From a bacterium (GTDB taxonomy: Bacteria > UBA10199 > 2-02-FULL-50-16 > JAJFLM01), in assembly GCA_965216315.1 (NCBI GenBank), contig CBDCFN010000016.1, positions 1,568,001 to 1,632,000 on the forward strand: a stretch of DNA of 64,000 nucleotides, read 5' to 3'. Positions within the stretch are counted from its first letter, which is position 1; each line of letters opens with the position of its first letter. The notes under the pieces were generated by a model. That model was not told the origin of the DNA. It saw nothing but the letters and a program-made list of their open reading frames with translations, and searched no databases. Shown piece after piece: positions 636-64,000 of this stretch. The position numbers and the translations under genes were made by a program.

Positions 636-2592
636 CTATCAAGCTGCATTCACTCGTAACCTTGGCTGGGTCACGGAATGGGAGCAAGCTCGACTCCGTT
701 CTAAGCGCATCGCTATCGCGGGGATGGGGGGTGTTGGCGGAAGCCATTTATTAACTCTCACCCGCGCCGGCATTGGCGCCTTTAATATCGCTGACTTCGA
801 TACCTTTGAGCAGGCTAACTTTAATCGACAGGCAGGCGCCTCCCTGAGTCATATCGGACAGGCTAAAGTCGACGTCATGGCAGGAATGGCTCTTGATATT
901 AATCCGGAGCTCGACATTAAAAAGTTCCCTGATGGAATAAATGAAAACAATATGGAAGCCTTTCTAGAAGGTGTCGATCTTTTCATCGACGGCCTTGATT
1001 TTTTCGCCCTCGAGGCACGCCAACAAATATTTGCCCTCTGTGCCACAAAAAAGATCCCAGCGATTACGGCCGCGCCTCTGGGAATGGGGGCTGCTCTGCT
1101 TAATTTTCTCCCGAATCACATGACATTCGAAGAATATTTTCGTCTGGCGAGGCAATCTGAACCTGAACAGATCATCCGTTTCGTCATGGGCCTTTCTCCG
1201 GCCCTGCTCCAGATGCCTTATTTAGCGGATGATACGCGCGTTGATTTTAAGCAGCGTAAAGTTCCCTCCACACCCATGTCCTGCGAGCTGTGTGCCGGCA
1301 TCGCCGCCACGGAGGCCCTCAAAATCTTACTCCAGAGAGGCGAAGTAAAGTGTGCTCCCCATGGCTTTCATTTTGATGCCTATCGCAATGAACTGGTCAG
1401 CACTTGGAGACCGTGGGGCAATAGGAACCCGCTCCAAAAGTTGGGACTCACCATCCTACGCCGACGTTTTACAAAAGAAATGAGCGCGGCTGTCATCCAT
1501 GAGAGCACGGATGTTCCGGCTGCAACCGCTATTGATAGAATACTTGATTTGGCTCGCTGGGCCCCAAGTGGAGATAATCTCCAGCCTTGGCGCTTCTCAA
1601 TTGAGAACGAGAACCATTTTTCGATTACGAGTCAACAAAATGGAAATCTTAACGTCTATGACCTCAACGGATGGGCCAATCAGCTTTCACTGGGAACGCT
1701 GCTCGAAAATATCGCGATCGCCGCTTCCGCGGAAGGACTCCAGGCAACTTTCAAGGCTCAAGCAATCAAGGCACCTGGTGATCTTAAGGTGGACGTTACA
1801 CTGGCTTCAACTCAAACCGGTAAACCCAACCCCCTCCTCCCCTTTATTAAGGCGCGCTCGACTCAACGTCGCAAGTTGGAAACAATGCCGCTAAGCTCGC
1901 AACAACGCCAACGGCTCGAAGATGCTGTTCGTCCTAGCTTTCATATCCGTTGGTTTGAGTCTTTCGGAGATAAATGGCGACTCGGTCGACTCATTTATCA
2001 AAACGCTCAGATCCGCTTGACGATTCCCGAGGCTTATTCCGTTCACAATGATATCATTGAGTGGAATGCCCGCTTCAGTCAGAATCGTATTCCGGATCAA
2101 TCGATTGGATTAGACCCGTTAACGCTGCGTTTAATGCGATCCGTCATGAAGAGCTGGCAACGCGTCCAGTTTACCAGTCATTTTATGGGAGGCACTATTT
2201 TAAGTCGGCTCCAGCTTGATTTGATCCCCGCGCTTAAATGCAGCGCACAATTCATTCTCATGGCCGATAAAGTTCCGGTATCGTTAGATGATTACTTAAT
2301 GGCGGGACGAGCGATCCAGCGTTTTTGGCTCACGGCTACCCAGTTAGGATTACAATTACAACCTCAGCTGGCGCCGCTTATGTTTGCCTCTTATGTCCGC
2401 ACTAATCTCCGGTTTACCCGCAAGAAGAGCGCCTTGGCCAAGGCCAAGCGGCTGGCACGGCGGCTAGATCGCATTGTAGGACCAGAAAATATCGAAAAAT
2501 CCCTTTTTATGGGGCGCGTCGGCTTTGGTCGCGAACCTAAAGCACGTTCCTTGCGTAAACCACTTGCACAACTTTACAACACGACTAACTGA
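610..2592 (+). CDS. ThiF adenylyltransferase-nitroreductase didomain protein (OxzB-like oxazolone synthetase)
   Basis: N-terminal ThiF motifs (IAGMGGVG, IADFDTFEQANFNRQ) and C-terminal nitroreductase motifs (ARWAPSGDNLQPW, GRAIQRFWLTAT). The start could be 583, 601 or 610. Confidence 0.85.
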   Translation: MLSKQTAFNYQAAFTRNLGWVTEWEQARLRSKRIAIAGMGGVGGSHLLTLTRAGIGAFNIADFDTFEQANFNRQAGASLSHIGQAKVDVMAGMALDINPELDIKKFPDGINENNMEAFLEGVDLFIDGLDFFALEARQQIFALCATKKIPAITAAPLGMGAALLNFLPNHMTFEEYFRLARQSEPEQIIRFVMGLSPALLQMPYLADDTRVDFKQRKVPSTPMSCELCAGIAATEALKILLQRGEVKCAPHGFHFDAYRNELVSTWRPWGNRNPLQKLGLTILRRRFTKEMSAAVIHESTDVPAATAIDRILDLARWAPSGDNLQPWRFSIENENHFSITSQQNGNLNVYDLNGWANQLSLGTLLENIAIAASAEGLQATFKAQAIKAPGDLKVDVTLASTQTGKPNPLLPFIKARSTQRRKLETMPLSSQQRQRLEDAVRPSFHIRWFESFGDKWRLGRLIYQNAQIRLTIPEAYSVHNDIIEWNARFSQNRIPDQSIGLDPLTLRLMRSVMKSWQRVQFTSHFMGGTILSRLQLDLIPALKCSAQFILMADKVPVSLDDYLMAGRAIQRFWLTATQLGLQLQPQLAPLMFASYVRTNLRFTRKKSALAKAKRLARRLDRIVGPENIEKSLFMGRVGFGREPKARSLRKPLAQLYNTTN

Positions 2593-48340: not shown

Positions 48341-51034
48341 CTAGCTTTTCCCCTTACCTTTCTTCGCCTTATTCACCTTCGGTTTGGTACTCGCTTGTGA
48401 TTTACGCGTAATTTTAAGCATATAATCCGCTATCGCCTGCGCCTGTTTTTCCACATCGCCCCCGAGTATATTGGGTGGACCGGAACCGGGCTCTGGCAAA
48501 AAGGCCGGCATTCTCACGCCGGGAGTAAACTGCTGCGCATTCTGCACCCAAGGCGCGATAAAGTCCGGCCGAATCCGTTCCGGTATCATATTCAGATCCG
48601 GCCCCCACATAGACTTTGGACCTGAAGGTGTTTTACTGCCCTGCACATGGCATGAAAAGCAGCTGAAATACTGTCCCGAAACCAGCGCCTCACCCGCGGC
48701 CAACATCTCCTCTGAGGCAGGCTCGTCCGGCAAAGTTACAAAGATATCTTCCTTATTATCGAGATAAGCAAAGTACTTCACCAACGTCTCCGTGTCTTCA
48801 TCATTGAAATCAAAGCTCGGCATTCGAATATCCAACCACGGGCGAATCTTCGTCTTGCCCGGATCCTTCAGGAAGTGAAACAACCAGTTCGGTTGGACCT
48901 TGGCCCCTTGGCCTGCAAGGTTGGGCGGAGCCGCACTGGGATCATCGTAAAGATTGGCAATATCACCGCCTTCGCCTTCAATCTGGTGACATCCGACGCA
49001 ATTCAAGCGTCGCGTCAAACGCCTCCCCTCATCAATCACCCGCTGATTAGAGCTGAGAGCCGAAGGAATATATTTTTCAGGGGGCGTATATCCCCGCAAG
49101 CCCTTAAGGAAAACAACGAGCGCCTTAATCTCATCATCCTTGAGCGGAAATTGAGGCATCACACTTGAAGCCCGCGTATGTACATAAGTCCGGGGATTTT
49201 TAATTTTATTATAGATCCAATCTTCCCAGGTATGTGGTATATCCGTGTCACCAAAATCCAACTTATCAGTTGTCTTTAGCCCAATCGATGACAGATCAAC
49301 GGATAATTTTGAGAGTCGCTCGGTCCCCTTGATGTCATGACATCCATAACAACCACGCTGCGTAATCAGCAGGTAACCTTTATCTTTATTTTCAGGATTA
49401 CTGAGTGCCGCGCGAATCGCCTCGTCGTCACTGGGTTTCTCACCCTTTGTAGCCAGATATGCCGTAATATCCGCAGCCTCCTGCTTCGTCAGGCGAAGCC
49501 GCGGCATGCGTGCTGTCGCATGATAGCTCTTCGGATCTTGGATCCAATTGTATACCCAATCCGCATTGGTTTTTTCCATAATGCGATCGAGGGTAGGCGC
49601 AAAAGCCGCTCCTTTATCTTCAAGACTGTGGCAGCCGAAACAACCAACTGCGCCAAATAATTTCTTCCCATTCTCCGCATTACCCGTACCCGGATAAGCT
49701 CCAAAGGGGTATTGGTAGTCACCCGATGCCTGCATCAGATAACTGGCAATCTGCGTCGCTTCCTCTTTGTTAACCTTCGCCTCGGGCATGCGCGTATGGG
49801 GATCATACGAACTTGGCTTCAATATCCACGGAACAATCCACTCAGGATTAATCTTGGCACCGACGTTTTCCAGTGACGGTCCCGCCTTGGGATAGTCTTC
49901 CAGTCCATTGACGTTATGGCAACCAACACAACCCATTTCCGCAAAAAGTCGCTTCCCCTTGATGGCGACGGGAGCATGTTCCAGGTTCCACTGATCGCCG
50001 TGACATTTGTGACAAGAAGATTGGACGTAATCTCCCCGCAACAGCGGGTTGAGCCAATGATGCTCAAAACCATGGGCAAAATCATCATGTCCAAAGGGTT
50101 CGTGTTTGATTTGGGTCGCACGGCCTTGCCCCCAGTGGCAGGTCGTGCAACCAAATTTATCGACAGGATGATTCTTGAGAAGCACATCGCGATGCGGATG
50201 CGTCCTGTGAAGCTTATTCTCCGCGTTCTCAAATCCTTTGCGATCAATCGCCGTATGACACGTCATGCAACGATCCACTTTACCCCACTCGACAACACCG
50301 ACAATCCCTAAATCAGGAATAACAACCTGTTTTATCTCGGTCCCTCTTCCGCTAATCGTATCCAAGCGCCGCTCGATAGTGCGCAACGGGGCAAAATGAT
50401 CTTCTTTGGCCTTCACCCAGCGCGCCACTTCGTTGTCGTATTTTGCCACCTTATCAGCGACAATCTTCAGCTCGGCAGCCGCCTTTTCAACCTCTTTACC
50501 AAGGCGCGCTATTTCCTCCTCAAGCTCCCAATATTTTTTTTCATACGGCTTATAGTCTTTGCCTTGGTGCTGGTGATGTTTCCAATGATAATAAATTTCA
50601 TCTTGATCAGCCTTAGCAAAGCCCCTCGTTTGGTTGATATCTTCGTATGCGATAGTCAGCTCGTCCCGCTCCTTCAGGAGTTTTTTATAGTCGGAAGATT
50701 CTTGTGCAATCTCGGCTTGTTCCAGTTTTAGCCCAACTTGTCTCAATGAAAGTTTTTTAGGATCGTTTGGCAATTCATCGACGGTCTTTCCCTTAAACTC
50801 TTCTTCGCGTTTTTTATCCGCCGCCTCGATCTTGGCCTTCAAGTCATCATATTCTTTTTGCACCAAGCCGTACTCGTACTTATTAAAGGCATTCTGAATC
50901 CCTTTATAGGTACGGCGAATAAAGGCGTCATCAATCATTGCATAGACGGAGATAACGAAAAATAATGAGCCGAGTAAGAATAAATACTTACTCATCGAGC
51001 GCTTTTCGACGGGATCTTTGTGTTCTTCAGCCAT
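48341..51034 (-). CDS. membrane-anchored octaheme cytochrome c of a Rieske/cytochrome b complex
   Basis: Eight CxxCH motifs (CMTCH, CTTCH, CHKCH, CVGCH, CFGCH, CYGCH, CVGCH, CFSCH); N-terminal TM and coiled coil. Confidence 0.9.
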   Translation of the reverse strand: MAEEHKDPVEKRSMSKYLFLLGSLFFVISVYAMIDDAFIRRTYKGIQNAFNKYEYGLVQKEYDDLKAKIEAADKKREEEFKGKTVDELPNDPKKLSLRQVGLKLEQAEIAQESSDYKKLLKERDELTIAYEDINQTRGFAKADQDEIYYHWKHHQHQGKDYKPYEKKYWELEEEIARLGKEVEKAAAELKIVADKVAKYDNEVARWVKAKEDHFAPLRTIERRLDTISGRGTEIKQVVIPDLGIVGVVEWGKVDRCMTCHTAIDRKGFENAENKLHRTHPHRDVLLKNHPVDKFGCTTCHWGQGRATQIKHEPFGHDDFAHGFEHHWLNPLLRGDYVQSSCHKCHGDQWNLEHAPVAIKGKRLFAEMGCVGCHNVNGLEDYPKAGPSLENVGAKINPEWIVPWILKPSSYDPHTRMPEAKVNKEEATQIASYLMQASGDYQYPFGAYPGTGNAENGKKLFGAVGCFGCHSLEDKGAAFAPTLDRIMEKTNADWVYNWIQDPKSYHATARMPRLRLTKQEAADITAYLATKGEKPSDDEAIRAALSNPENKDKGYLLITQRGCYGCHDIKGTERLSKLSVDLSSIGLKTTDKLDFGDTDIPHTWEDWIYNKIKNPRTYVHTRASSVMPQFPLKDDEIKALVVFLKGLRGYTPPEKYIPSALSSNQRVIDEGRRLTRRLNCVGCHQIEGEGGDIANLYDDPSAAPPNLAGQGAKVQPNWLFHFLKDPGKTKIRPWLDIRMPSFDFNDEDTETLVKYFAYLDNKEDIFVTLPDEPASEEMLAAGEALVSGQYFSCFSCHVQGSKTPSGPKSMWGPDLNMIPERIRPDFIAPWVQNAQQFTPGVRMPAFLPEPGSGPPNILGGDVEKQAQAIADYMLKITRKSQASTKPKVNKAKKGKGKS

Positions 51035-51041
51035 TGTTAAT

Positions 51042-51111
51042 AGGGGCTAGCGTCGCCCCCTCCACAAGGAGACCTTGCGGAGCCTCCCCCTCTCGCTCGC
51101 GTTGCTCGCTA
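51042..51111. repeat. 70-nt structured repeat, copy A (intergenic)
   Basis: Near-identical to 51940-52010; central hairpin CAAGG-AGA-CCTTG. Confidence 0.85.
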
Positions 51112-51142
51112 TATCTGAGGTTTGTTCGGGTTAGTATTGTCA

Positions 51143-52051
51143 TTATATATTTAAGTTAATCCACGGGAATTTGACGATATATTTAATGTTAAAACTCCAA
51201 CGCAACAGCATTTTGACGACGGTTCCCATCATGGTCAGCCATAAAAAAGCAACGATGCCATAGCGTACCACCCCAAGCTTCTGGATCGTTTCAAAACGCT
51301 TCACGCCCCATAAATAGAACGGAATCGCGAGCCCATAGTACAAACCAATCAACAGGGTGCCAAAAATCGCCCCACCCCAGTCACCGCGCAGGAAATCAAT
51401 CCCCGACACCTGAGCGACCAGTACGTTTAAATCTACATTCGTCAGCGCCACGACCTTGTGAGCGTCCCACTCCTGCCAAGGCATAAAGAAGTTCCAACCC
51501 GGACCCCGCATGAAGGTCCCGACAAAGATCAGCATGATCCAGAGGACGAGAAACCCGAAATTGAAGGTCAGCATGGCAAACGGCCGATCGCGGAAAGTAT
51601 AGTAGCCATTGCCCTTCGGATTGACGTCCACGTAAGGAATTACCATCAGGCCGATGATGATAAAAGTTGGCAGTACGACGCCAGCAAACCAGGGATCAAA
51701 ATAAACCAACATCTCCTGTAGGCCGAGAAAGTACCAAGGCGCCTTGGACGGGTTCGGTGTATTGGTTGGATTGGCGGGTTCCTCGAGTGGCGCATCGATA
51801 AAAATAGACCACACCGTCACGGCAATCAGGGTCAGCAGGCCGATGACGAACTCGACTTTTACGAGGTGAGGCCAGGTATGCACCTTGTCCTTCGACAAGG
51901 CCGCAGCTGGCGGCATCTTCGGCGGAACCGGGACCTTAGAGGGGCTCGCGTCGCCCCCTCCACCGGCAGAGCCGGACGGAGCCTCCCCCTCCCGCTCGCT
52001 TTGCTCGCTAGGCTTCGCCACTGCTTCTGGAATTATTGTTTCTTCTGCCAT
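51143..52051 (-). CDS. cytochrome b6 subunit IV-like protein (C-terminal half of split cytochrome b)
   Basis: TWPHL, APLEEPANP-x-x-TPNPSKAPWYFLGLQE and PYVD-x-NP motifs. Confidence 0.88.
   Translation of the reverse strand: MAEETIIPEAVAKPSEQSEREGEAPSGSAGGGGDASPSKVPVPPKMPPAAALSKDKVHTWPHLVKVEFVIGLLTLIAVTVWSIFIDAPLEEPANPTNTPNPSKAPWYFLGLQEMLVYFDPWFAGVVLPTFIIIGLMVIPYVDVNPKGNGYYTFRDRPFAMLTFNFGFLVLWIMLIFVGTFMRGPGWNFFMPWQEWDAHKVVALTNVDLNVLVAQVSGIDFLRGDWGGAIFGTLLIGLYYGLAIPFYLWGVKRFETIQKLGVVRYGIVAFLWLTMMGTVVKMLLRWSFNIKYIVKFPWINLNI
51940..52010. repeat. 71-nt structured repeat, copy B (in frame within the CDS)
   Basis: Homolog of 51042-51111; central hairpin CCGGC-AGA-GCCGG; encodes SEQSEREGEAPSGSAGGGGDASP. 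Confidence 0.85.
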
Positions 52052-52053
52052 AA

Positions 52054-52857
52054 TCACAACGGTCCGGATATTCCCCCGTCCTTACGGACGCGCCAGAAAT
52101 GTACGATGATGAATACCGCCGTTGCGACGGGTATAAATATGCAATGTAAAACGTAAAAACGCAGCAAGGTCGGCGCACCGACAACGGTTCCACCGAGCAG
52201 TACAGAACGCGCATCGTAGCGCGGCGTGATAACCCCCGTTAAGGCCTGCATCTGTTCCGCCATCGGGCCCTCATGACCGGCCAAGGGTGTAGCGCGCGCC
52301 ATATTTGTTCCGACGGTCACGGCCCAGATCGATAACTGATCCCAAGGCAAAAGATACCCGGTAAAGCTCAGCAAGAAGGTTAAAACTAATAAGATAACCC
52401 CGATGATCCAGTTGAACTCACGGGGGGGCTTATAAGAACCCGTCAAGAATACCCGAAACATGTGGAACATCACCATCATGACCATCAAATGGGCCGACCA
52501 GCGATGCATATTCCGCATGACCATGCCGAAAGGCACGTCAAACTGCAGATACTTCATGTCGACGTAGGCATATTCAGCAACCGGACGATAATAAAACATG
52601 AGAATAATGCCCGTAACCGTCAGGATAATAAAAAACAGGAAGGTCAATCCGCCCGCACACCAAGTATAGTTAATCTTAATAGAGTGACGACGCACTTTAG
52701 AAGGATGAAGATGCAAAAATACATTAGACGCCGTCATCAAGATACGATTACGCCCGGTATCTTTATAACCATGGCGAAAAATTGACTTCCAGACGTCCGA
52801 AGTCACAATCTGGCGACGAATTTCATCGGCCTTAGCCTTAAGCTCTACGAGACTCAT
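52054..52857 (-). CDS. qcrB: cytochrome b6-like subunit (N-terminal half)
   Basis: [34 protein letters not shown] and TLLRFYVLH motifs. Confidence 0.92.
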
Positions 52858-52876
52858 ATCAACCCTACTTCCCCAA

Positions 52877-53419
52877 TTACGAATACTTTACGAACGAACC
52901 AGGTTTTCCCCACTCGCCTTTTTCATAGCGATACTTTTTACTTTTATCGACCAGTAACTCACCCTCGTCGTTAACCCATATTTTCAAGCGTTCCAGTGGT
53001 CGCGGCGCAGGCCCTTCAAAATTAATCCCTTTTTTAGTAAAACCACTTCCATGACAGGGGCATTTAAATTTACTCTCGAGACTAAGCCACCGCGGGGTAC
53101 AGCCGAGATGGGTGCAAATCGCTAAGAGCGCAACAATTTCAGTCGGCGTGCGTTCGATCCAAACTCGATATTCCGTCTTGTATTTTTCGCTGACTTCACC
53201 GACGACGTAATCCTCAGGCCGACCGACTTTAACGATGGGTGAGGGTTCGAACAAAACCCGTGGAAACATGAAACGAAGAAACGCCAGGAGTCCGAGCCCA
53301 ATACCACCCAAAAAAGCACCCCAACCCGCAAAGCCAAAAAAATCACGGCGCGTCCACAGATTGCGTTCGTCGCGATCCTTTTTGAGCTGTCCCGATTCTG
53401 GGATAGTACTGCCCGACAT
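52877..53419 (-). CDS. qcrA: Rieske iron-sulfur subunit
   Basis: Tat motif TRRDFF; CTHLGC, CPCHGS and GPAPRPL motifs. Confidence 0.94.
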
Positions 53420-58013: not shown

Positions 58014-58058
58014 GTTGGACTTGGGATGGCAAGCGCGACGATTATTGAGAGGGTGTAG
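58014..58058 (+). repeat. second copy of the thiolase 3' end (VGLGMASATIIERV*)
   Basis: Matches 57864-57908 at 36 of 45 nt; all differences are synonymous. Confidence 0.9.
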
Positions 58059-61000
58059 CAGCGGATCGAAGCCGTTCATAGGCCTCACTTTCGTACCAAC
58101 TCTTTAACTCTTGCGTGATGACACCGCGGATGCGATCGGCAGAGACCACCGCTGTAAAAGAGCCATCGGCCTCCGCGCGCTCTAAGGTACTCATCCACCC
58201 AATCACGGTATCAACCATTTTTTCAGCCAATATACCCGCTTCCGATTCAGGCCGCCCTTGTTCAATCAGAATATGGGTCATCTGCCGCACCGTCGCCTTG
58301 TAAAATCCAATCCCCTTCCAACCCTTGGCATCCAATACCGCTTCATAAGAAGAAGGATCCGCGTAGACCTTAATATGACCTGCATCGGCTAGCGTTTCCA
58401 GTTTACGGAGATCAACCTCAGTCCCATCTTCTAACGGAACCTTCAATTTCATCCCCAATTCTTTCGCTACCGTGACCTTCATACCGCCTAGTACTTTCTT
58501 ACGTGGGCCAGCCCAAAGATAGACAGGGGCGGGATGATTGACAATGGCCGATAACAACCGCGCCCCATTCTGACCACTACCCGCCACCGACCGCGGATCA
58601 TATCCCGACGCCGCCAAATCACCGACAATGGGCACCCAGGGAAAGTGTTGGGTCATGAACTCGATAAAGCTGGCTAAGTCACCCGCCCCGCGCGGACTCA
58701 GTGTCATCGGTGGATTCCAGTTGAGGTCCTTTCTTGTCAGCTTATTGCCATCCGCATCATAAACTTCGCGGTCAATGTACTGAATGTCGCCCGCTTCATC
58801 CCGGGGAAATTCCATGATCATCTGGGCGCCAACGCCGGCGACGGGAAAGCCGCTCATGCGTGCCATCCCGGCGATGGCATAATGATCCGTGTCAGAAATG
58901 CGATTAAAGGTCCCGGCATCAAAAAGGGCTTCCAACTCGTCGGCCACATCATAGTTGCCACTCTGGGGATCAACCGGCAGACCAAGCTCCTTTCGTTCTT
59001 GATTCACGCGCGTTACGGACGCCTCAATACGGGCATTGATGTCATTTGATCCACGCGGCGTGAAAGGTCTCACCTCTGAAACGATTTCACTCAGCTGCTC
59101 CCAGCTATAAGGTTGTGTAATATCGGGTATGGTTTGGTTGGCCGGGTCGTCCAAGCCCTTTAACACGGCAAGCAAGGCATCCACTTCCGAATGAGCGACT
59201 TGAGTCGTCAGGCCTTCGGCCTTCATGCGGTTGGCCCCGCCTAATTCGATGGTATCGAAGAAGAGTGCCTGTCCGAATATATTGTTAATCGCATCGGCTC
59301 CCGTCAGCAACATGACAGCGCCATCTAATAAGGCACGCTCCGCCGCGCTCATTTCGTCTTCCCGAAGCTCGTTGTTCGGATCGCCTCGCTGAATGCGCAT
59401 GGCACGTGCCAGGATGTAAAGGTACATCCCGATGCCAACTACGGTCACGCGATTGCGGCCGCGCCCTTTCCCTCCCAGCACCGCACTAAACGTCGGAACT
59501 TCTGCAGCCGCTCGGGCCATCGCGCCCGCAGTCAAACCCGATCCCAATAAACTTTTTTGATTCACGCCACCTTGCAACAAACTACAGGGCCGAAAATTGG
59601 ATTGACCCTCCGCTCCTTCCCAATCTCCTTTAAAGACCTCCTGCCATGACGCTGCACCCAAGGCACGAACGACGGCCTCGACCTGCTTCGCCGTCAGATA
59701 AATATCCTCGCCAGTCTCATCACTGCTCAAACGCGCAGGCTGACCCGGATGACGCGGAATCAGCGCGTGAGGCAGGGCCATTTGCGCGCCGGGAGTTTCC
59801 GCCAAATAAATCGGCGGATACCCCTGTTGCCGGGCATATTCCATCGCCAGCCAAAAAAACTTGGCACTTTCAATATCAACCGCGGCTCTTTTGGCCACAG
59901 GATGAGTTGGGTCGTTCCCAATCACCACGCAAGTGATCCCTTCCGGGTGGTTCGGAAGTTTCAATCTCACCTGAAAAGCCGCTACCCCGGTCGGATTAAG
60001 CCCAGCGGGACGCCGGCCAATCCGAAAAAGGCCTTCATCATCGATATACATCTCTCGAATCGCATCCATGTCGAGTGGCGGCGCCGGTGATCCGACATCT
60101 TCCCATAATTTTTCATAGGCCTCGGGTAAAAGCCTTTGCACACGGTCATAAACAAACACCCCACCTAGATTTTTCGCCAAAGTCCGCCGTTTATCGATTG
60201 GAGATTTATCCTCCATTTGTTCTTCGGCATCACGGTAATCATCATCCGGGCTTAAATGAATATTACCCGTACGAAGCATGCGTTCTAATACATTGCGCCG
60301 AACCAAAACCCAACGTCTTCCACTGGGTGTCTCCGCCGAGACAATATACCGTACACTGACGAGGGGTGAACCGATATCAGTATCACTTATAAAGGTCAGG
60401 GCAGTTACACGTCGTGGCGGCATTCTCTCATCTAAGCTCACTTCAAGGCGGGCCTGAATCACAAGTTGTTCTAAATCGATGCCCGCTCGATCATAGGAAG
60501 ATTCTCTCGCAAAGGCGGCCATTAATTCTTCCCAGACAGCAGGAGTTTGATACTGAACACCTTCGACATAGATTCTCATGCGTTGCCATTGAGAAACTTC
60601 ACCCGTCTCCAACTGACGGTGCAATTCCTCACTCATGCGGCGATGGCGCCTCAACAGTCCGGGCATTCGGCCGTGCTTAGACACCAAGGCATCATCCGGG
60701 GCCAGTAAATACGAAGCCATATAAAGAGATGTTTGGTCGGACTGACTGCTATGGAGACGCAAGATCAACGCCGTTTTCACCTCAAAAGGCTGCACATAAT
60801 CAATGTGCCGGTAGTTGCCCAGACGTTGCAATCCGTAGCGATGCCCAAAGGCCGGATCGATCCCGAGCAATGCGGGATCTACCGCAAATGAGCGCTCGCC
60901 GGGCAATGTAATATGGTAACCCAAGCGAAATTTTTCCTGATCATAGCGCACCCGGTTACGTAGAGTAACGTATTGAGGCCTGTTACCCCGTCCCCGATCA

Positions 61001-64000
61001 ATCACAAAAGTCAGGCGCCACACTCGATCACGAATGGAATCCCATTCCGGTGATTCAACAATACTATTAAACACGTTGTTTAAATGTGCCGCGCGGTCTT
61101 GAATAGGATCTTCTCGACTTGTCGGACCGCGCGCCATCCTGACGGATCCAGAAAAAATCTTATCCGGTACGATAATTTTTATCGTCCTATCATCGCTAAT
61201 GGTCCGGCTATCATCCTTTACTTGTGCGAGTATCGTGCGATACGCGTCTTCGAGAGTTTCCCGGTGAACAATATAATGATAGTGGCATTGGGCGTAACGT
61301 CTATCCCCTTCGACGCGCTTCATATCCTTGACAACAGCGCGACGCAGCTTCGGTGATAGCTGAACGACTTCCGGAATATCATAACCTCGCGCCTCCATCG
61401 GGCGCAGAAACTCTATTTCCGCAGCGAGGTCCTGCACTTCGGGTGTCCAGCGCGTATGCGGCCTCAAGAAGCGCAATAACCGCCCGAGCATGGGATAGGG
61501 AGATCGTGATGTAACGCGAATCAGGGCCTGGCGTTCCGGATCACCTGGATTACGCTGCGCCGCCTCTTCAAATGTCGCGATAAATTGTTGTTCGATGAAA
61601 CGTCGAAACGGACCGCGCGCCAATGGAGCCAACGCAACTAGGTCCTCGACAATCTGCGCCATCGTTCGTGCACTATCTGCATCATAGCGCGGCAAAGCGA
61701 GCACAAAGCCCTCCGCTTTATCTCCCTGGACATAAAGTCGACGTCTCTGTTGTGACTCCAGCACCCCAACCCGCATACCCGCTGTATCGTGGCTTAAAAA
61801 ATGTCCTTCGAGAAGATGTCGTGACCCAAGAGGAAGCTGTCGTGGTTGAAAGGATACCGACTCGACTCGGCGACCACTGTAGTCGAGTAGTTGCAAATGG
61901 AGATTGCGATTTTCTTTCGCGGCACGTTCGACCTTGAGATGGAATAAAAGAGGTACGCTCGCATCCTGCTCTCCATCAAGCCCGCGCCACAAGGGAAACA
62001 AAGTCGCAACCGGCTGCCCATGCTCATACAAGACGACATTATCAATATTAATACGCCCATCGACTTCCGTGATGACAGGCCATACCTCAAACTTCTTGCG
62101 CAAAGCCCGTATGCCGAAAAGTCGATGCCAACGGCCCCGCTGACTCGCTAAAGCATGTGCAAGAGGTCCCGAAGCGATTGAGTCATCTCCACGTAAGAGC
62201 CGTTGATATAATGCAACAGCGCCATCGTCACCGTCTATGACGGTCAAGACCGTATTCCTGAAGCCACTCTGTTCCGGACTCACGACAAACCGATTATCCT
62301 CGTCCGCCCTCGGCGGAAAGCGCTCCATAAGTCCTGCACGTTGGTGGCCCTGTTCTAATAAAACCGGAATCGTTCTGATCAGAGCCAAGCGCTCCGGATC
62401 CAGCAGCGCCCTAAGCTCAGCATCTTGATGAAACGTCTCAAAACGTTGGGGGACAGATTCGGGAAGATTATCCGGTAGCTGCGTCACCCAATCATCATAT
62501 AGTTTGCTTTGCCTGAATGAATCGATCTGACTGAGTGTTCCGCGTAAAGTCACTGCATCGTTGGCATCAACGTCTCGCAACGTCTCATGGAAACGCCACG
62601 GTTTCAGGGCAAAAACCCAGCGTAACAGATGACGCCAAACATATTTGAGGCCCTCTCGTTCTTGCCGACTGGTAGAATTCTGATACTCCTTATCTATTGC
62701 CATCATCTCGGTGACGACATGTGGCAGGGCTTGCACGAGCGCCGCAAGAGCTTGAGGCGTGTGCTCGCGTTGCGCTCGTTCAACGATGCCCACAAGACGG
62801 GTTCGATTGAGTCCCCTCTCCAGGAGAGCCGGCATATCCACTCCCCAACGAACGTGGCTTCGTACCATACGTTCTGCGGCACTACTGCGGCCACTCCGAA
62901 ATGGCGTTGTTGTACCGCGACGATGCGTCAGCCACATAAAACTGATCGGATAAGTCAGGCCATCGAGCTCTGCATAGAGTTCTTTTGAAAACACCCCACC
63001 CTGCGCTTGGTTTGCTTCAGTAATCCGCTGCATGACGTCTTGCTGAACCGCTGCAGCGACGACAGCGCGAATCAACGAATTAACTTCACTGAACTGATGC
63101 GGTGGCTGAAAAAATTCACTCAAACGTCGTTCATGGAGTTGTAAGACTTGGGCATCCCAACGAAAGCTAACGGCGGGTCGAGCTTCCATCTTAATCGGCT
63201 CATCGCGCGAATCTATTGTCATCAATTCTGTGTAAAGGGCCTTCCCCTCCCAAATGATCTGAAGCGTCATCTCTCCAAGATCATCACAATCTGGAGCTGA
63301 TAACGCACGACCGTAATGCGACCACTCAGCAACGAACTCTGGCCAGGCCATTGCTTTCAATTGCTCAACATCATTCTTCGCGATAAGCCCTCTAAGATAG
63401 CGTTGGACCGCGTGAGCGGCATAGAGACGCACCAATAAATCGCAGCGAGTGACCTGTTTGGGTAATTGAAAGAAGAGCTTGAGGCGCTCTTGGCCAAGAG
63501 GATGCGGTCCAAAGTCATAGGGGCCGAGTCGCGGCAACAGGTGGTCTCCATTGAGCCATGTGTCGGCACCCTGAGTGAGGCGAACAACATAACTCTCTTC
63601 AGCCTCACTTGACCCTGTCTCTGCAGCGATTTCCGGATAGATAAAGGAAGGAACAATCGCACGTCGGGCTCGTGCGAGCTGACCGATAATAGCAACATAT
63701 GTTTTCCCATACTGCGGTGATGTTTCAGCCTGAACCAGCTGAATTGATAAAGCGCTCGCCTCCCGCGCCGCAGCGCGAACCGTGTCGACATCAATAGCAC
63801 GGTCGATACATCCTAATTGTAAGTTAACGAGCGGTAAGAGCTGTCGATTAAATTCATTGGCTTGAGTTATCGAGAAGGACTCACCGTGGAGGAGTGATTC
63901 GGCACGATCAAGGCGGGCGATGAGTTGCGGTCGATGAAGTGTAGCGAGACTCGCACTCGCTAGTTGAAGCGAACCTGATGACAGCCCCTGCAAAGCCTGA
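58042..64000 (-). CDS. giant protein (>1983 aa, 5' truncated) with eukaryote-type ACC central and carboxyltransferase domains
   Basis: Frame is open to the window end. KRR...GGVFVYD, G-x-N-x-x-GV-x-AF...P-x-HP-x-G...VIGNDPT, EYAR-x-x-G-x-P-x-IYLA-x-x-x-GA, GSGL-x-AG, VGIG-x-YL and LLTGADAIN...ELGG motifs. Confidence 0.75.
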   Translation of the reverse strand, partial: QALQGLSSGSLQLASASLATLHRPQLIARLDRAESLLHGESFSITQANEFNRQLLPLVNLQLGCIDRAIDVDTVRAAAREASALSIQLVQAETSPQYGKTYVAIIGQLARARRAIVPSFIYPEIAAETGSSEAEESYVVRLTQGADTWLNGDHLLPRLGPYDFGPHPLGQERLKLFFQLPKQVTRCDLLVRLYAAHAVQRYLRGLIAKNDVEQLKAMAWPEFVAEWSHYGRALSAPDCDDLGEMTLQIIWEGKALYTELMTIDSRDEPIKMEARPAVSFRWDAQVLQLHERRLSEFFQPPHQFSEVNSLIRAVVAAAVQQDVMQRITEANQAQGGVFSKELYAELDGLTYPISFMWLTHRRGTTTPFRSGRSSAAERMVRSHVRWGVDMPALLERGLNRTRLVGIVERAQREHTPQALAALVQALPHVVTEMMAIDKEYQNSTSRQEREGLKYVWRHLLRWVFALKPWRFHETLRDVDANDAVTLRGTLSQIDSFRQSKLYDDWVTQLPDNLPESVPQRFETFHQDAELRALLDPERLALIRTIPVLLEQGHQRAGLMERFPPRADEDNRFVVSPEQSGFRNTVLTVIDGDDGAVALYQRLLRGDDSIASGPLAHALASQRGRWHRLFGIRALRKKFEVWPVITEVDGRINIDNVVLYEHGQPVATLFPLWRGLDGEQDASVPLLFHLKVERAAKENRNLHLQLLDYSGRRVESVSFQPRQLPLGSRHLLEGHFLSHDTAGMRVGVLESQQRRRLYVQGDKAEGFVLALPRYDADSARTMAQIVEDLVALAPLARGPFRRFIEQQFIATFEEAAQRNPGDPERQALIRVTSRSPYPMLGRLLRFLRPHTRWTPEVQDLAAEIEFLRPMEARGYDIPEVVQLSPKLRRAVVKDMKRVEGDRRYAQCHYHYIVHRETLEDAYRTILAQVKDDSRTISDDRTIKIIVPDKIFSGSVRMARGPTSREDPIQDRAAHLNNVFNSIVESPEWDSIRDRVWRLTFVIDRGRGNRPQYVTLRNRVRYDQEKFRLGYHITLPGERSFAVDPALLGIDPAFGHRYGLQRLGNYRHIDYVQPFEVKTALILRLHSSQSDQTSLYMASYLLAPDDALVSKHGRMPGLLRRHRRMSEELHRQLETGEVSQWQRMRIYVEGVQYQTPAVWEELMAAFARESSYDRAGIDLEQLVIQARLEVSLDERMPPRRVTALTFISDTDIGSPLVSVRYIVSAETPSGRRWVLVRRNVLERMLRTGNIHLSPDDDYRDAEEQMEDKSPIDKRRTLAKNLGGVFVYDRVQRLLPEAYEKLWEDVGSPAPPLDMDAIREMYIDDEGLFRIGRRPAGLNPTGVAAFQVRLKLPNHPEGITCVVIGNDPTHPVAKRAAVDIESAKFFWLAMEYARQQGYPPIYLAETPGAQMALPHALIPRHPGQPARLSSDETGEDIYLTAKQVEAVVRALGAASWQEVFKGDWEGAEGQSNFRPCSLLQGGVNQKSLLGSGLTAGAMARAAAEVPTFSAVLGGKGRGRNRVTVVGIGMYLYILARAMRIQRGDPNNELREDEMSAAERALLDGAVMLLTGADAINNIFGQALFFDTIELGGANRMKAEGLTTQVAHSEVDALLAVLKGLDDPANQTIPDITQPYSWEQLSEIVSEVRPFTPRGSNDINARIEASVTRVNQERKELGLPVDPQSGNYDVADELEALFDAGTFNRISDTDHYAIAGMARMSGFPVAGVGAQMIMEFPRDEAGDIQYIDREVYDADGNKLTRKDLNWNPPMTLSPRGAGDLASFIEFMTQHFPWVPIVGDLAASGYDPRSVAGSGQNGARLLSAIVNHPAPVYLWAGPRKKVLGGMKVTVAKELGMKLKVPLEDGTEVDLRKLETLADAGHIKVYADPSSYEAVLDAKGWKGIGFYKATVRQMTHILIEQGRPESEAGILAEKMVDTVIGWMSTLERAEADGSFTAVVSADRIRGVITQELKSWYESEAYERLRSAATPSQ

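Follow-up and report, generated by a model that had tools for sequence, protein, structure and literature searches.

Single-chain acetyl-CoA carboxylases (ACCs) are textbook "all-in-one" enzymes, and the locus described here raises the question whether one part of such an enzyme can persist in a bacterium as a protein of its own. The window, i.e. the whole analysed stretch of 64 000 nucleotides, corresponds to positions 1568001-1632000 of contig C16 in genome G000 (2.96 Mb, 98% complete), and its right-hand end is occupied by the minus-strand gene of a giant protein, P0002. An earlier note, made from the letters of the window, had reported at 58042..64000 an open reading frame (ORF) of >1983 aa with the central and carboxyltransferase (CT) parts of a eukaryote-type ACC. 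The frame is indeed open from 58042 to the window end, and with its ATG located 17 nt past the window the product is 1991 aa long, with a calculated size of ~224 kDa and a pI of 6.2. The base composition of the gene is typical of the genome (GC 0.527 and GC3 0.511, in reference to averages of 0.517 +/- 0.041 and 0.555 +/- 0.073 for genome ORFs of at least 400 aa).

Identity of the C-terminal part

P0002 is very probably a member of a rare family derived from the eukaryote-type single-chain ACC, of which only the central-domain part AC3-AC5 and the CT domain were kept. This is concluded from a collinear profile alignment, the predicted fold, structural matches obtained with VIA-align and Foldseek, and the clade that the family forms in a CT tree.

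The hhalign comparison of the family profile with seven full ACCs resulted in a probability of 100 and an E-value of 1.3e-54 over 1009 collinear columns, in which P0002 residues ~810-1980 were aligned to the second half of the ACC central domain and to the CT, and IDPAFGHRYGLQRLGNY fell on the corresponding ACC segment. All the CT and central-domain motifs that had been quoted in the order of single-chain ACCs were present in the protein (Table 1), and the proposed eukaryote-type character was borne out for the C-terminal ~1190 aa. In a PDB profile search, the CT domains of yeast (1uyr), human and Chaetomium ACC were found first, with E-values from 7.7e-48 to 5e-32, in comparison to 9.3e-5 for the beta subunit of propionyl-CoA carboxylase (PCC).

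The AlphaFold2 (AF2) model of aa 800-1991, built with 12 aligned sequences, reached a pLDDT of 80.3 and a pTM of 0.73. The structural comparison with yeast ACC suggested in the earlier note came out clearly, as the best Foldseek match of the model was the yeast holoenzyme (5csk_B, E 9e-55, ~1260 columns), and further best matches were human ACC1 and the crystal constructs of the Chaetomium central domain and CT (CD-CT). Two rigid bodies were separated by VIA-align, i.e. model residues 5-475 (aa 804-1274) and 472-1192 (aa 1271-1991). The first of these superposed on yeast AC3-AC5 (5cs4_A, 1036-1493) with Z 28.9 and rmsd 3.3 A over 378 aligned residues, and on 5i6e with Z 28.1; in the naming given in the available text of Hunkeler et al. 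(PMC4833862), it corresponds to CDL-CDC1-CDC2. The second body produced Z 27.1 to 1uyt_C and Z 27.6 to human 4asi_C, versus Z ~20-21 to PCC beta, AccD6 and GcdA. The CDN module was unrecognised in P0002, with the N-terminal model too poor to judge.

The Pfam matches of P0002 itself remained below threshold. Carboxyl_trans (PF01039) scored 17.6 bits on aa 1561-1728, under the cut-off of 22.3, and ACC_central had an E-value of 0.045 on aa 800-1270, also below the cut-off, with no match on whole P0002. The Carboxyl_trans score was 26.6 bits for the P0002 frame with its neighbouring stretches, and 52 bits for the orthologues P0005 and P0006.

The biotin domain, of which the earlier note had seen no sign, is absent from the whole 1991 aa. 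No AMKM or MKM was found in the entire P0002 sequence, and no Pfam match to Biotin_lipoyl, either with the whole protein or in pieces; a genome-wide PF00364 scan returned the neighbouring P0003 and not P0002. Neither were Biotin_carb_N, CPSase_L_D2 or Biotin_carb_C matched at E<=1 in the whole protein or in pieces, and a scan of P0002 against NCBIfam gave 0 families. P0002 is thus without biotin carboxylase (BC) and biotin carboxyl carrier protein (BCCP) domains. Secretion, which had been suggested as a possibility, and a membrane location were dropped, as no hydrophobic signal or membrane segment was present in P0002 (maximum 19-residue hydropathy of 1.52).

Table 1. Features of P0002 and its neighbours, in window positions
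Feature	Residues (aa)	Position	Strand	Basis
CD-CT protein gene (P0002)	1-1991	58042..64000, ATG at 64017	-	stop codon 58042-58044
N-terminal leader	1-100	63718..64000, on to 64017	-	similar to P0003 leader
Unrecognised region, predicted all-helical	101-570	62308..63717	-	AF2 secondary structure, low confidence
Unrecognised region, predicted beta-rich	575-775	61693..62295	-	DSSP on low-confidence AF2 model
ACC central-domain part AC3-AC5 (CDL, CDC1, CDC2)	802-1274	60196..61614	-	hhalign, VIA-align
IDPAFGHRYGLQRLGNY motif, in AC3-AC5 part	1053-1069	60811-60861	-	read in P0002
ACC-type CT domain, N + C lobes	1275-1991	58045..60195	-	PDB profile, VIA-align, Foldseek, tree
KRR..GGVFVYD motif	1276-1291		-	read in P0002
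AGLNPTGVAAFQV motif	1338-1350		-	read in P0002
VVIGNDPT motif	1364-1371		-	read in P0002
EYARQQGYPPIYLA motif	1393-1406		-	read in P0002
Oxyanion hole 1, in TPGAQM	G1410-A1411	59785..59790	-	matches ACC SGAR, Arg -> Gln
GSGLTAG motif	1492-1498		-	read in P0002
VGIGMYL motif	1527-1533		-	read in P0002
LLTGADAINNIFG motif	1570-1582		-	read in P0002
ELGG motif	1591-1594		-	read in P0002
Oxyanion hole 2, in VLGGMKV	G1844-G1845	58483..58488	-	within aa 1801-1850
Convergent thiolase	425 aa	56631..57908	+	Pfam Thiolase_N, Thiolase_C
PlsB-type glycerol-3-phosphate acyltransferase	644 aa	54477..56411	+	Pfam Acyltransferase, GPAT_C
Single-chain ACC-biotin ligase fusion P0003	2588 aa	64121-71887 (L002:7121-14887), outside window	-	Pfam

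Family, distribution and phylogeny

The P0002 family is very rare, with about five sequences. When 5.8 billion proteins were searched through a word index with whole P0002, 7999 candidates were scored, of which only P0002 and a fungal ACC (E 2.8e-13) were matches; with the CT region as the query, the search gave a single true relative, P0005 (E 1.4e-132), a protein of 1783 aa that is 34% identical over 1505 aa. In an exhaustive HMMER search of 1.84 billion representatives with aa 1-1200 (E<=0.001), P0002, P0006 (1687 aa) and P0007 (1770 aa) were found. Except for the P0002 leader, the four members align end to end, the other three being 31-33% identical to P0002, and the alignment contains 257 invariant residues, which are concentrated after aa 1000.

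The gene of P0005 belongs to G077, a genome of the same class, where it is split over two contigs. Among 93 class genomes, full-length-type matches to the family profile were obtained in G000 (2896 bits) and G077 (2292 + 142 bits) alone; in the seven other genomes passing E 1e-30, ordinary ACC ORFs were matched, and these in the N lobe of the CT alone (119-147 bits). Full BC-BT-BCCP-ACC_central-CT genes were found in class relatives at the same locus. A eukaryote-type ACC in a bacterium, as pointed out in the earlier note, is as such no novelty, since single-chain ACC is common in the class and a bacterial example was described in 2019 (PMC6491548, in the text available).

The CT tree comprised 22 rows and 633 columns (IQ-TREE, LG+C20), one partial dinoflagellate row having been dropped beforehand, and was built without actinobacterial SACE_4237-type ACCs. 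The four family members formed a 100/100 clade with a long stem of 1.68. The clade was placed inside the single-chain ACC group, which was split from the three PccB-type CTs of G000 at 100/100, so that the P0002 CT goes with single-chain ACCs rather than with the ordinary bacterial AccD/PccB subunits. Within the group, the place of the family is a polytomy; in the best tree it was sister to the pair of ACC-biotin ligase (ACC-BirA) fusions with a support of 36/29, flagged as a meeting of long branches.

In the same tree, the ACCs of two further class genomes, G025 and G011, grouped with nine eukaryotic sequences (94/100). The CT of the G025 ACC (L022:1-7137, -) reaches 51-55% identity with the ACC CTs of animals, fungi and protists, which hints at a close, possibly transfer-related, link of this bacterial class with eukaryotic ACC.

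Upstream neighbour and other carboxylase genes

Directly upstream of P0002, on the same strand and across a 103-nt gap, lies the gene of P0003, the local candidate for the missing biotin domain, which is situated outside the window. Its Pfam domains are Biotin_carb_N, CPSase_L_D2, Biotin_carb_C, Biotin_lipoyl (EVMKIE at 892), ACC_central (E 5e-11) and Carboxyl_trans, followed at the C terminus by BPL_LplA_LipB and BPL_C, with GRGRTG at 2379. By this domain content, P0003 is a single-chain ACC with all its parts, to which a biotin-protein ligase is fused. With P0003 as the query, the fusion was identified in 2/93 class genomes, the second being G031 (47% identical), and close relatives of P0003 were not found among genome contigs. 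A separate BirA gene is present in G000 besides P0003. In G031, a stand-alone BirA-like ORF of 258 aa (L021:10605-11381, +) overlaps the 3′-end of the ACC-BirA fusion.

The first ~86 residues are common to P0002 and P0003 (BLASTP 24/86 identical, E 2e-4), with a Smith-Waterman score of 80 against 27.9 +/- 4.8 for shuffled sequences, and 0/500 shuffles reached 80. This leader is missing from the three other family members. Its comparison with the G031 leader was not significant, as 58 and 88 of 500 shuffles scored as high. No other copies were found in G000 by tblastn, and the leader was consequently dropped as a genome-wide targeting tag. A complex prediction for the two leaders (P0003 1-172 with P0002 1-110) scored 0.01, which is no answer and informative neither way.

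The gap between the two genes contains a perfect 10-bp G+C-rich hairpin with a 7-nt loop at 64043-64069 (L002:7043-7069, -) and no T-run, which could be an RNA stabiliser, a processing site or an attenuator. Promoter and terminator scans were at chance level (15 found vs 12.6 expected, and 17 vs 17.4).

Of the other carboxylase genes, G000 contains three PccB-type CTs and two BC genes, and no AccA/AccD-type genes were found in it; the sets of G077, G031 and the class relative G002 are similar. G077 encodes two ordinary BC/BCCP sets. The separate BC and BCCP genes of both G077 and G000 adjoin their own PccB-type CT genes.

Active site and proposed function

Two glycine oxyanion holes are needed for carboxyl transfer, the second one stabilising carboxybiotin, as stated in the available part of a preprint (10.64898/2026.02.06.704326). 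In P0002 the two sites, G1410-A1411 and G1844-G1845, are retained and were invariant in 12/12 aligned sequences. The N-lobe motifs LTG..N and LGG are retained as well, LTG and LGG being invariant in 12/12.

We tentatively propose, as a reading that could well be right, that P0002 is a free-standing CT taking carboxybiotin in trans, with P0003 as the donor in G000. The domain identity, the fold, the retention of both oxyanion holes, the conservation pattern and the gene order are observed; by inference, P0002 would be a soluble protein that dimerises through its CT domain as all ACC-type CTs do. Acyl-CoA would bind in the well-kept N lobe, and CO2 would be taken from carboxybiotin on the BCCP of another polypeptide, for which the obvious donor in G000 would be the co-directional P0003. 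Together, the two proteins could carboxylate a second acyl-CoA or move carboxyl groups between CoA esters, in a lipid-metabolism setting. Activity of P0002 is favoured by the two invariant holes, the N-lobe motifs that are kept, the C-lobe loops as the best conserved part, and an intact ORF with GC and GC3 typical of the genome. P0003 is the putative donor because of its BC, BCCP, ACC_central, CT and BirA domains, its co-directional gene only 103 nt away with no terminator-like T-run in between, and the common leader.

Several findings weigh against this proposal. Besides the sub-threshold Carboxyl_trans score of P0002, there is a loss of canonical residues: of 89 aligned columns identical in five canonical ACCs (2/89 being alignment-edge columns), 54 were kept in P0002 and 39 in the whole family, in comparison to 49/89 in the pair of P0003 and its G031 counterpart. 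Among the changed residues, the Arg of SGAR is replaced by Q/K/W and the Lys of YKTA by D/E, and RGFSGG reads SGYDPR. With P0003 as the query, no single-chain ACC was found in the G077 assembly (95% complete), and the G077 orthologue of P0002 is without the leader and has unrelated upstream genes, from which it follows that the family does not need a P0003-type partner. Conversely, G031 has the ACC-BirA fusion and no P0002-type protein.

The substitutions cluster on the biotin side (YKTA Lys, RGFSGG), with the SGAR Arg changed too. The best-conserved 50-aa window of the family, aa 1801-1850, covers the C-lobe active-site loops with 63% identity versus ~32% for the whole protein, and the C lobe carries the family-specific invariant motifs AA.GYD, SG..GARL.SA and LGGM.VT. 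As these remodelled loops are the best-conserved window, the pattern is more in line with a site under selection for a modified task than with an inactive one. The remodelled and strongly conserved biotin-side loops also suggest that carrier or substrate preference may have changed.

Alternative explanations

The changed residues, 35/89 of the canonical CT columns with the Arg of SGAR and the Lys of YKTA among them, could also be read as signs of a non-catalytic pseudo-subunit, which would pair with P0003 via the CT or the leader and either act as a scaffold or regulate activity up or down, e.g. through half-ACC heterodimers in which the BC domains cannot dimerise. The Pfam CT score below threshold and the tandem position behind P0003 with a common leader point in the same direction. 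So do two published statements, each from the accessible portion of its source: the CT active site is at the dimer interface, whereby heterodimers would alter activity (PMC11735997), and BC dimerisation is linked to yeast ACC activation (PMC4833862). We nevertheless hold a pseudo-subunit to be rather unlikely, as neither oxyanion hole varies, conservation within the family is highest in the active-site loops, and the G077 orthologue exists without any single-chain ACC. Moreover, the P0002 CT is no closer to the P0003 CT than to other ACCs (BLASTP E-values of 0.004 to P0003 vs 3e-27 to the G025 ACC). BADC proteins, which are biotin-less BCCP-like regulators of the plant plastid heteromeric ACC, would provide an analogy as catalytically incomplete paralogues of an ACC part that modulate a complex; unlike P0002, they are derived from BCCP and not from CD-CT, and belong to heteromeric ACC.

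Remodelling of the biotin-side C lobe to family-specific invariant motifs, with the ACC motifs kept in the CoA-side N lobe, would be in line with a biotin-independent acyl-CoA enzyme, e.g. a malonyl-/carboxyacyl-CoA decarboxylase or another enzyme handling CoA esters, which needs no BCCP. P0002 is without BCCP, the family is present in G077 in the absence of a cognate ACC, and the neighbours are related to lipids and CoA esters (thiolase, PlsB, AMP-binding ligase). Such an enzyme is still unlikely, since oxyanion hole 2, described above as stabilising carboxybiotin, remains invariant, and the neighbourhood is inherited ACC-locus synteny and not specific to P0002. The open-access literature searches returned no biotin-free ACC-type CT, and we know of no precedent for one.

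P0002 may instead be a CD-CT half, whether a pre-fusion survivor or a working split, which is served in trans by BC and BCCP, with P0003 as the supplier in G000, where the result would be a two-headed carboxylase with one biotin carrier; we consider this arrangement doubtful. Improbable is the version in which the free-standing CD-CT is half of a two-polypeptide eukaryote-type ACC, ancestral and pre-fusion or secondarily split, making malonyl-CoA with separate BC and BCCP. It would agree with G077, which has CD-CT and separate BC and BCCP genes and in which no single-chain ACC was found, and the polytomy at which the family joins the other single-chain ACCs leaves room for a deep branch. An origin of single-chain ACC by fusion of BC-BCCP and CT units has been proposed earlier, as cited in the available text of PMC6491548. 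However, in G077 and G000 the separate BC and BCCP genes have PccB-type CTs of their own beside them, a complete ACC (P0003) is already next door in G000, the family stands on a long branch (stem 1.68), and residues on the substrate side differ.

That P0002 is a decaying, functionless remnant of a duplicated ACC gene is very improbable indeed: BC and BCCP are lost, the Pfam scores are weak and orthologues occur in 2/93 class genomes, but the frame is open over 1991 codons, the AF2 model is confident, and there are three further members of full length, at 31-33% identity, the 257 invariant residues being concentrated in CD-CT.

Complementary degeneration, in which the CoA-side lobe of an obligate heterodimer would come from P0002 and its biotin-side lobe from P0003, was considered on account of a gap in the P0003 N lobe in the MAFFT alignment. 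It was ruled out, as hhalign against PccB-type CTs showed the P0003 N lobe to be collinear and merely compact, and also because G031 and G077 each have one of the two proteins.

N-terminal region

Residues 1-800 of P0002 are unrecognised and mostly helical, and they stand where BC, BT, BCCP and a recognisable CDN would be. The ~900 unrecognised residues reported earlier upstream of the ACC-like part are accordingly unrecognised still, and amount to about 800. The N-terminal 810 aa had no significant likeness to the ACC profile (E 0.59) or to P0003/G031 (E 0.066), and no match in Pfam; the best PDB sequence had an E-value of 0.65 and ESM Atlas gave no usable match. A separate Pfam scan of the first 850 aa returned nothing credible.

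The AF2 model of the N-terminal part had a pLDDT of 44.6, and only its secondary structure was used. The all-helical region contains a diverged tandem module of ~105 aa, at aa ~173-250 and ~293-375, with a repeat score of 61 (shuffles 26 +/- 4.1, 0/500 as high). The same module is clear in the orthologue P0005, at aa ~44-148 and ~176-280 (278 vs 26.9 +/- 4.7 for shuffles), and its hhalign self-match has an E-value of 4.5e-4. In the beta-rich region, local pLDDT was ~60-72 for aa 570-670 only.

Locus neighbours and synteny

The P0002 gene converges on a thiolase gene, as had been noted, and this is followed by a gene of PlsB type; an AMP-binding CoA ligase gene lies upstream of P0003. Orthologues of the thiolase are 82% identical in G002, where the gene faces an ordinary ACC, and 67% in G031, where it faces the ACC-BirA fusion. 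The G077 orthologue of P0002 likewise converges on a thiolase, ~66% identical (65-82% across G002, G031 and G077). PlsB orthologues are found beside the thiolase in G002 (52% identical) and G031 (40%). The convergence with thiolase and PlsB is inherited ACC-locus synteny, and the thiolase was dropped as a specific partner of P0002, since the same two genes are located behind ACC in relatives that have no P0002. As the same thiolase and PlsB face ACC in these relatives, the P0002 gene sits in, or took over, the ancestral ACC slot. Just past the thiolase beside the G077 orthologue lies a gene for a serine resolvase (L036:5308-5928, -), which hints at past rearrangement.

A fungal/CMN-type fatty acid synthase I (FAS I) gene directly follows ACC in two class relatives, at L023:11145-20000 (+) in G027 and L024:3-4727 (-) in G011, with Pfam domains including Fas1-AflB-like_hel, FAS_meander, SAT, MaoC, Acyl_transf_1 and Fas_alpha_ACP. 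No FAS I gene was found in G000. Elsewhere in the window, at 48341-53419 (-), genes for a Rieske protein, a split cytochrome b (b6/petD-like) and then an 897-aa multihaem cytochrome c form an unusual bc-type complex cluster.

Relation to known systems

In the eukaryotic single-chain ACCs (yeast Acc1, human ACC1/2; constructs 5i6h, 5cs4 and 1uyt), the same AC3-AC5 part is followed by the two-lobed CT in collinear order, and P0002 has in common with them the motif KRR..G..F.YD at the N terminus of the CT as well as both oxyanion holes. It differs from them in being without BC, BT, BCCP and a recognisable CDN, in its ~800 aa of unrecognised fold, and in the remodelled biotin-side loops. The CD-CT crystal constructs are laboratory fragments, whereas P0002 is a natural stand-alone protein.

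Among bacterial proteins, SACE_4237 of Saccharopolyspora erythraea is a multidomain "eukaryotic-like" ACC and an essential enzyme, according to the accessible text of Livieri et al. (2019, PMC6491548). Like SACE_4237 and the single-chain ACCs of the class, P0002 is bacterial and combines a true central region of ACC with a CT of ACC type; those enzymes are complete, whereas P0002 is without the ATP-using and biotin-carrying halves and belongs to a long-branched clade of its own. Actinobacterial AccD/PccB beta subunits draw on one BC-BCCP alpha subunit, e.g. in the mycobacterial LCC, in the available part of the preprint 10.64898/2026.02.06.704326. The principle proposed for P0002 would be analogous, i.e. 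a CT-only chain with two glycine oxyanion holes and BCCP in trans, although P0002 is of another CT lineage (the 100/100 split), is 1991 aa long, and carries central-domain modules and a novel N-terminal region.

In the open-access literature, no description was found of a CD-CT protein without BC and BCCP, or of such an ACC paralogue or pseudoenzyme, and searches on ACC, FAS I and Myxococcota, and on PF08326, returned nothing relevant. To our knowledge, no role has been described for the ACC central domain apart from the complete enzyme.

The natural and conserved P0002 family shows that the CD-CT unit can persist alone. This bears on the evolutionary assembly of the eukaryote-type ACC, through fusion of BC-BCCP and CT units, on whether ACC-type CTs accept a biotin carrier in trans, and on the role of the central domain when there is no BC to position. 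The neighbouring fusion of ACC to a biotin ligase and the linkage of ACC across the class with thiolase, PlsB and, in some relatives, FAS I suggest that this uncultured lineage, labelled as Myxococcota, has a lipid toolkit that is unusually eukaryote-like.

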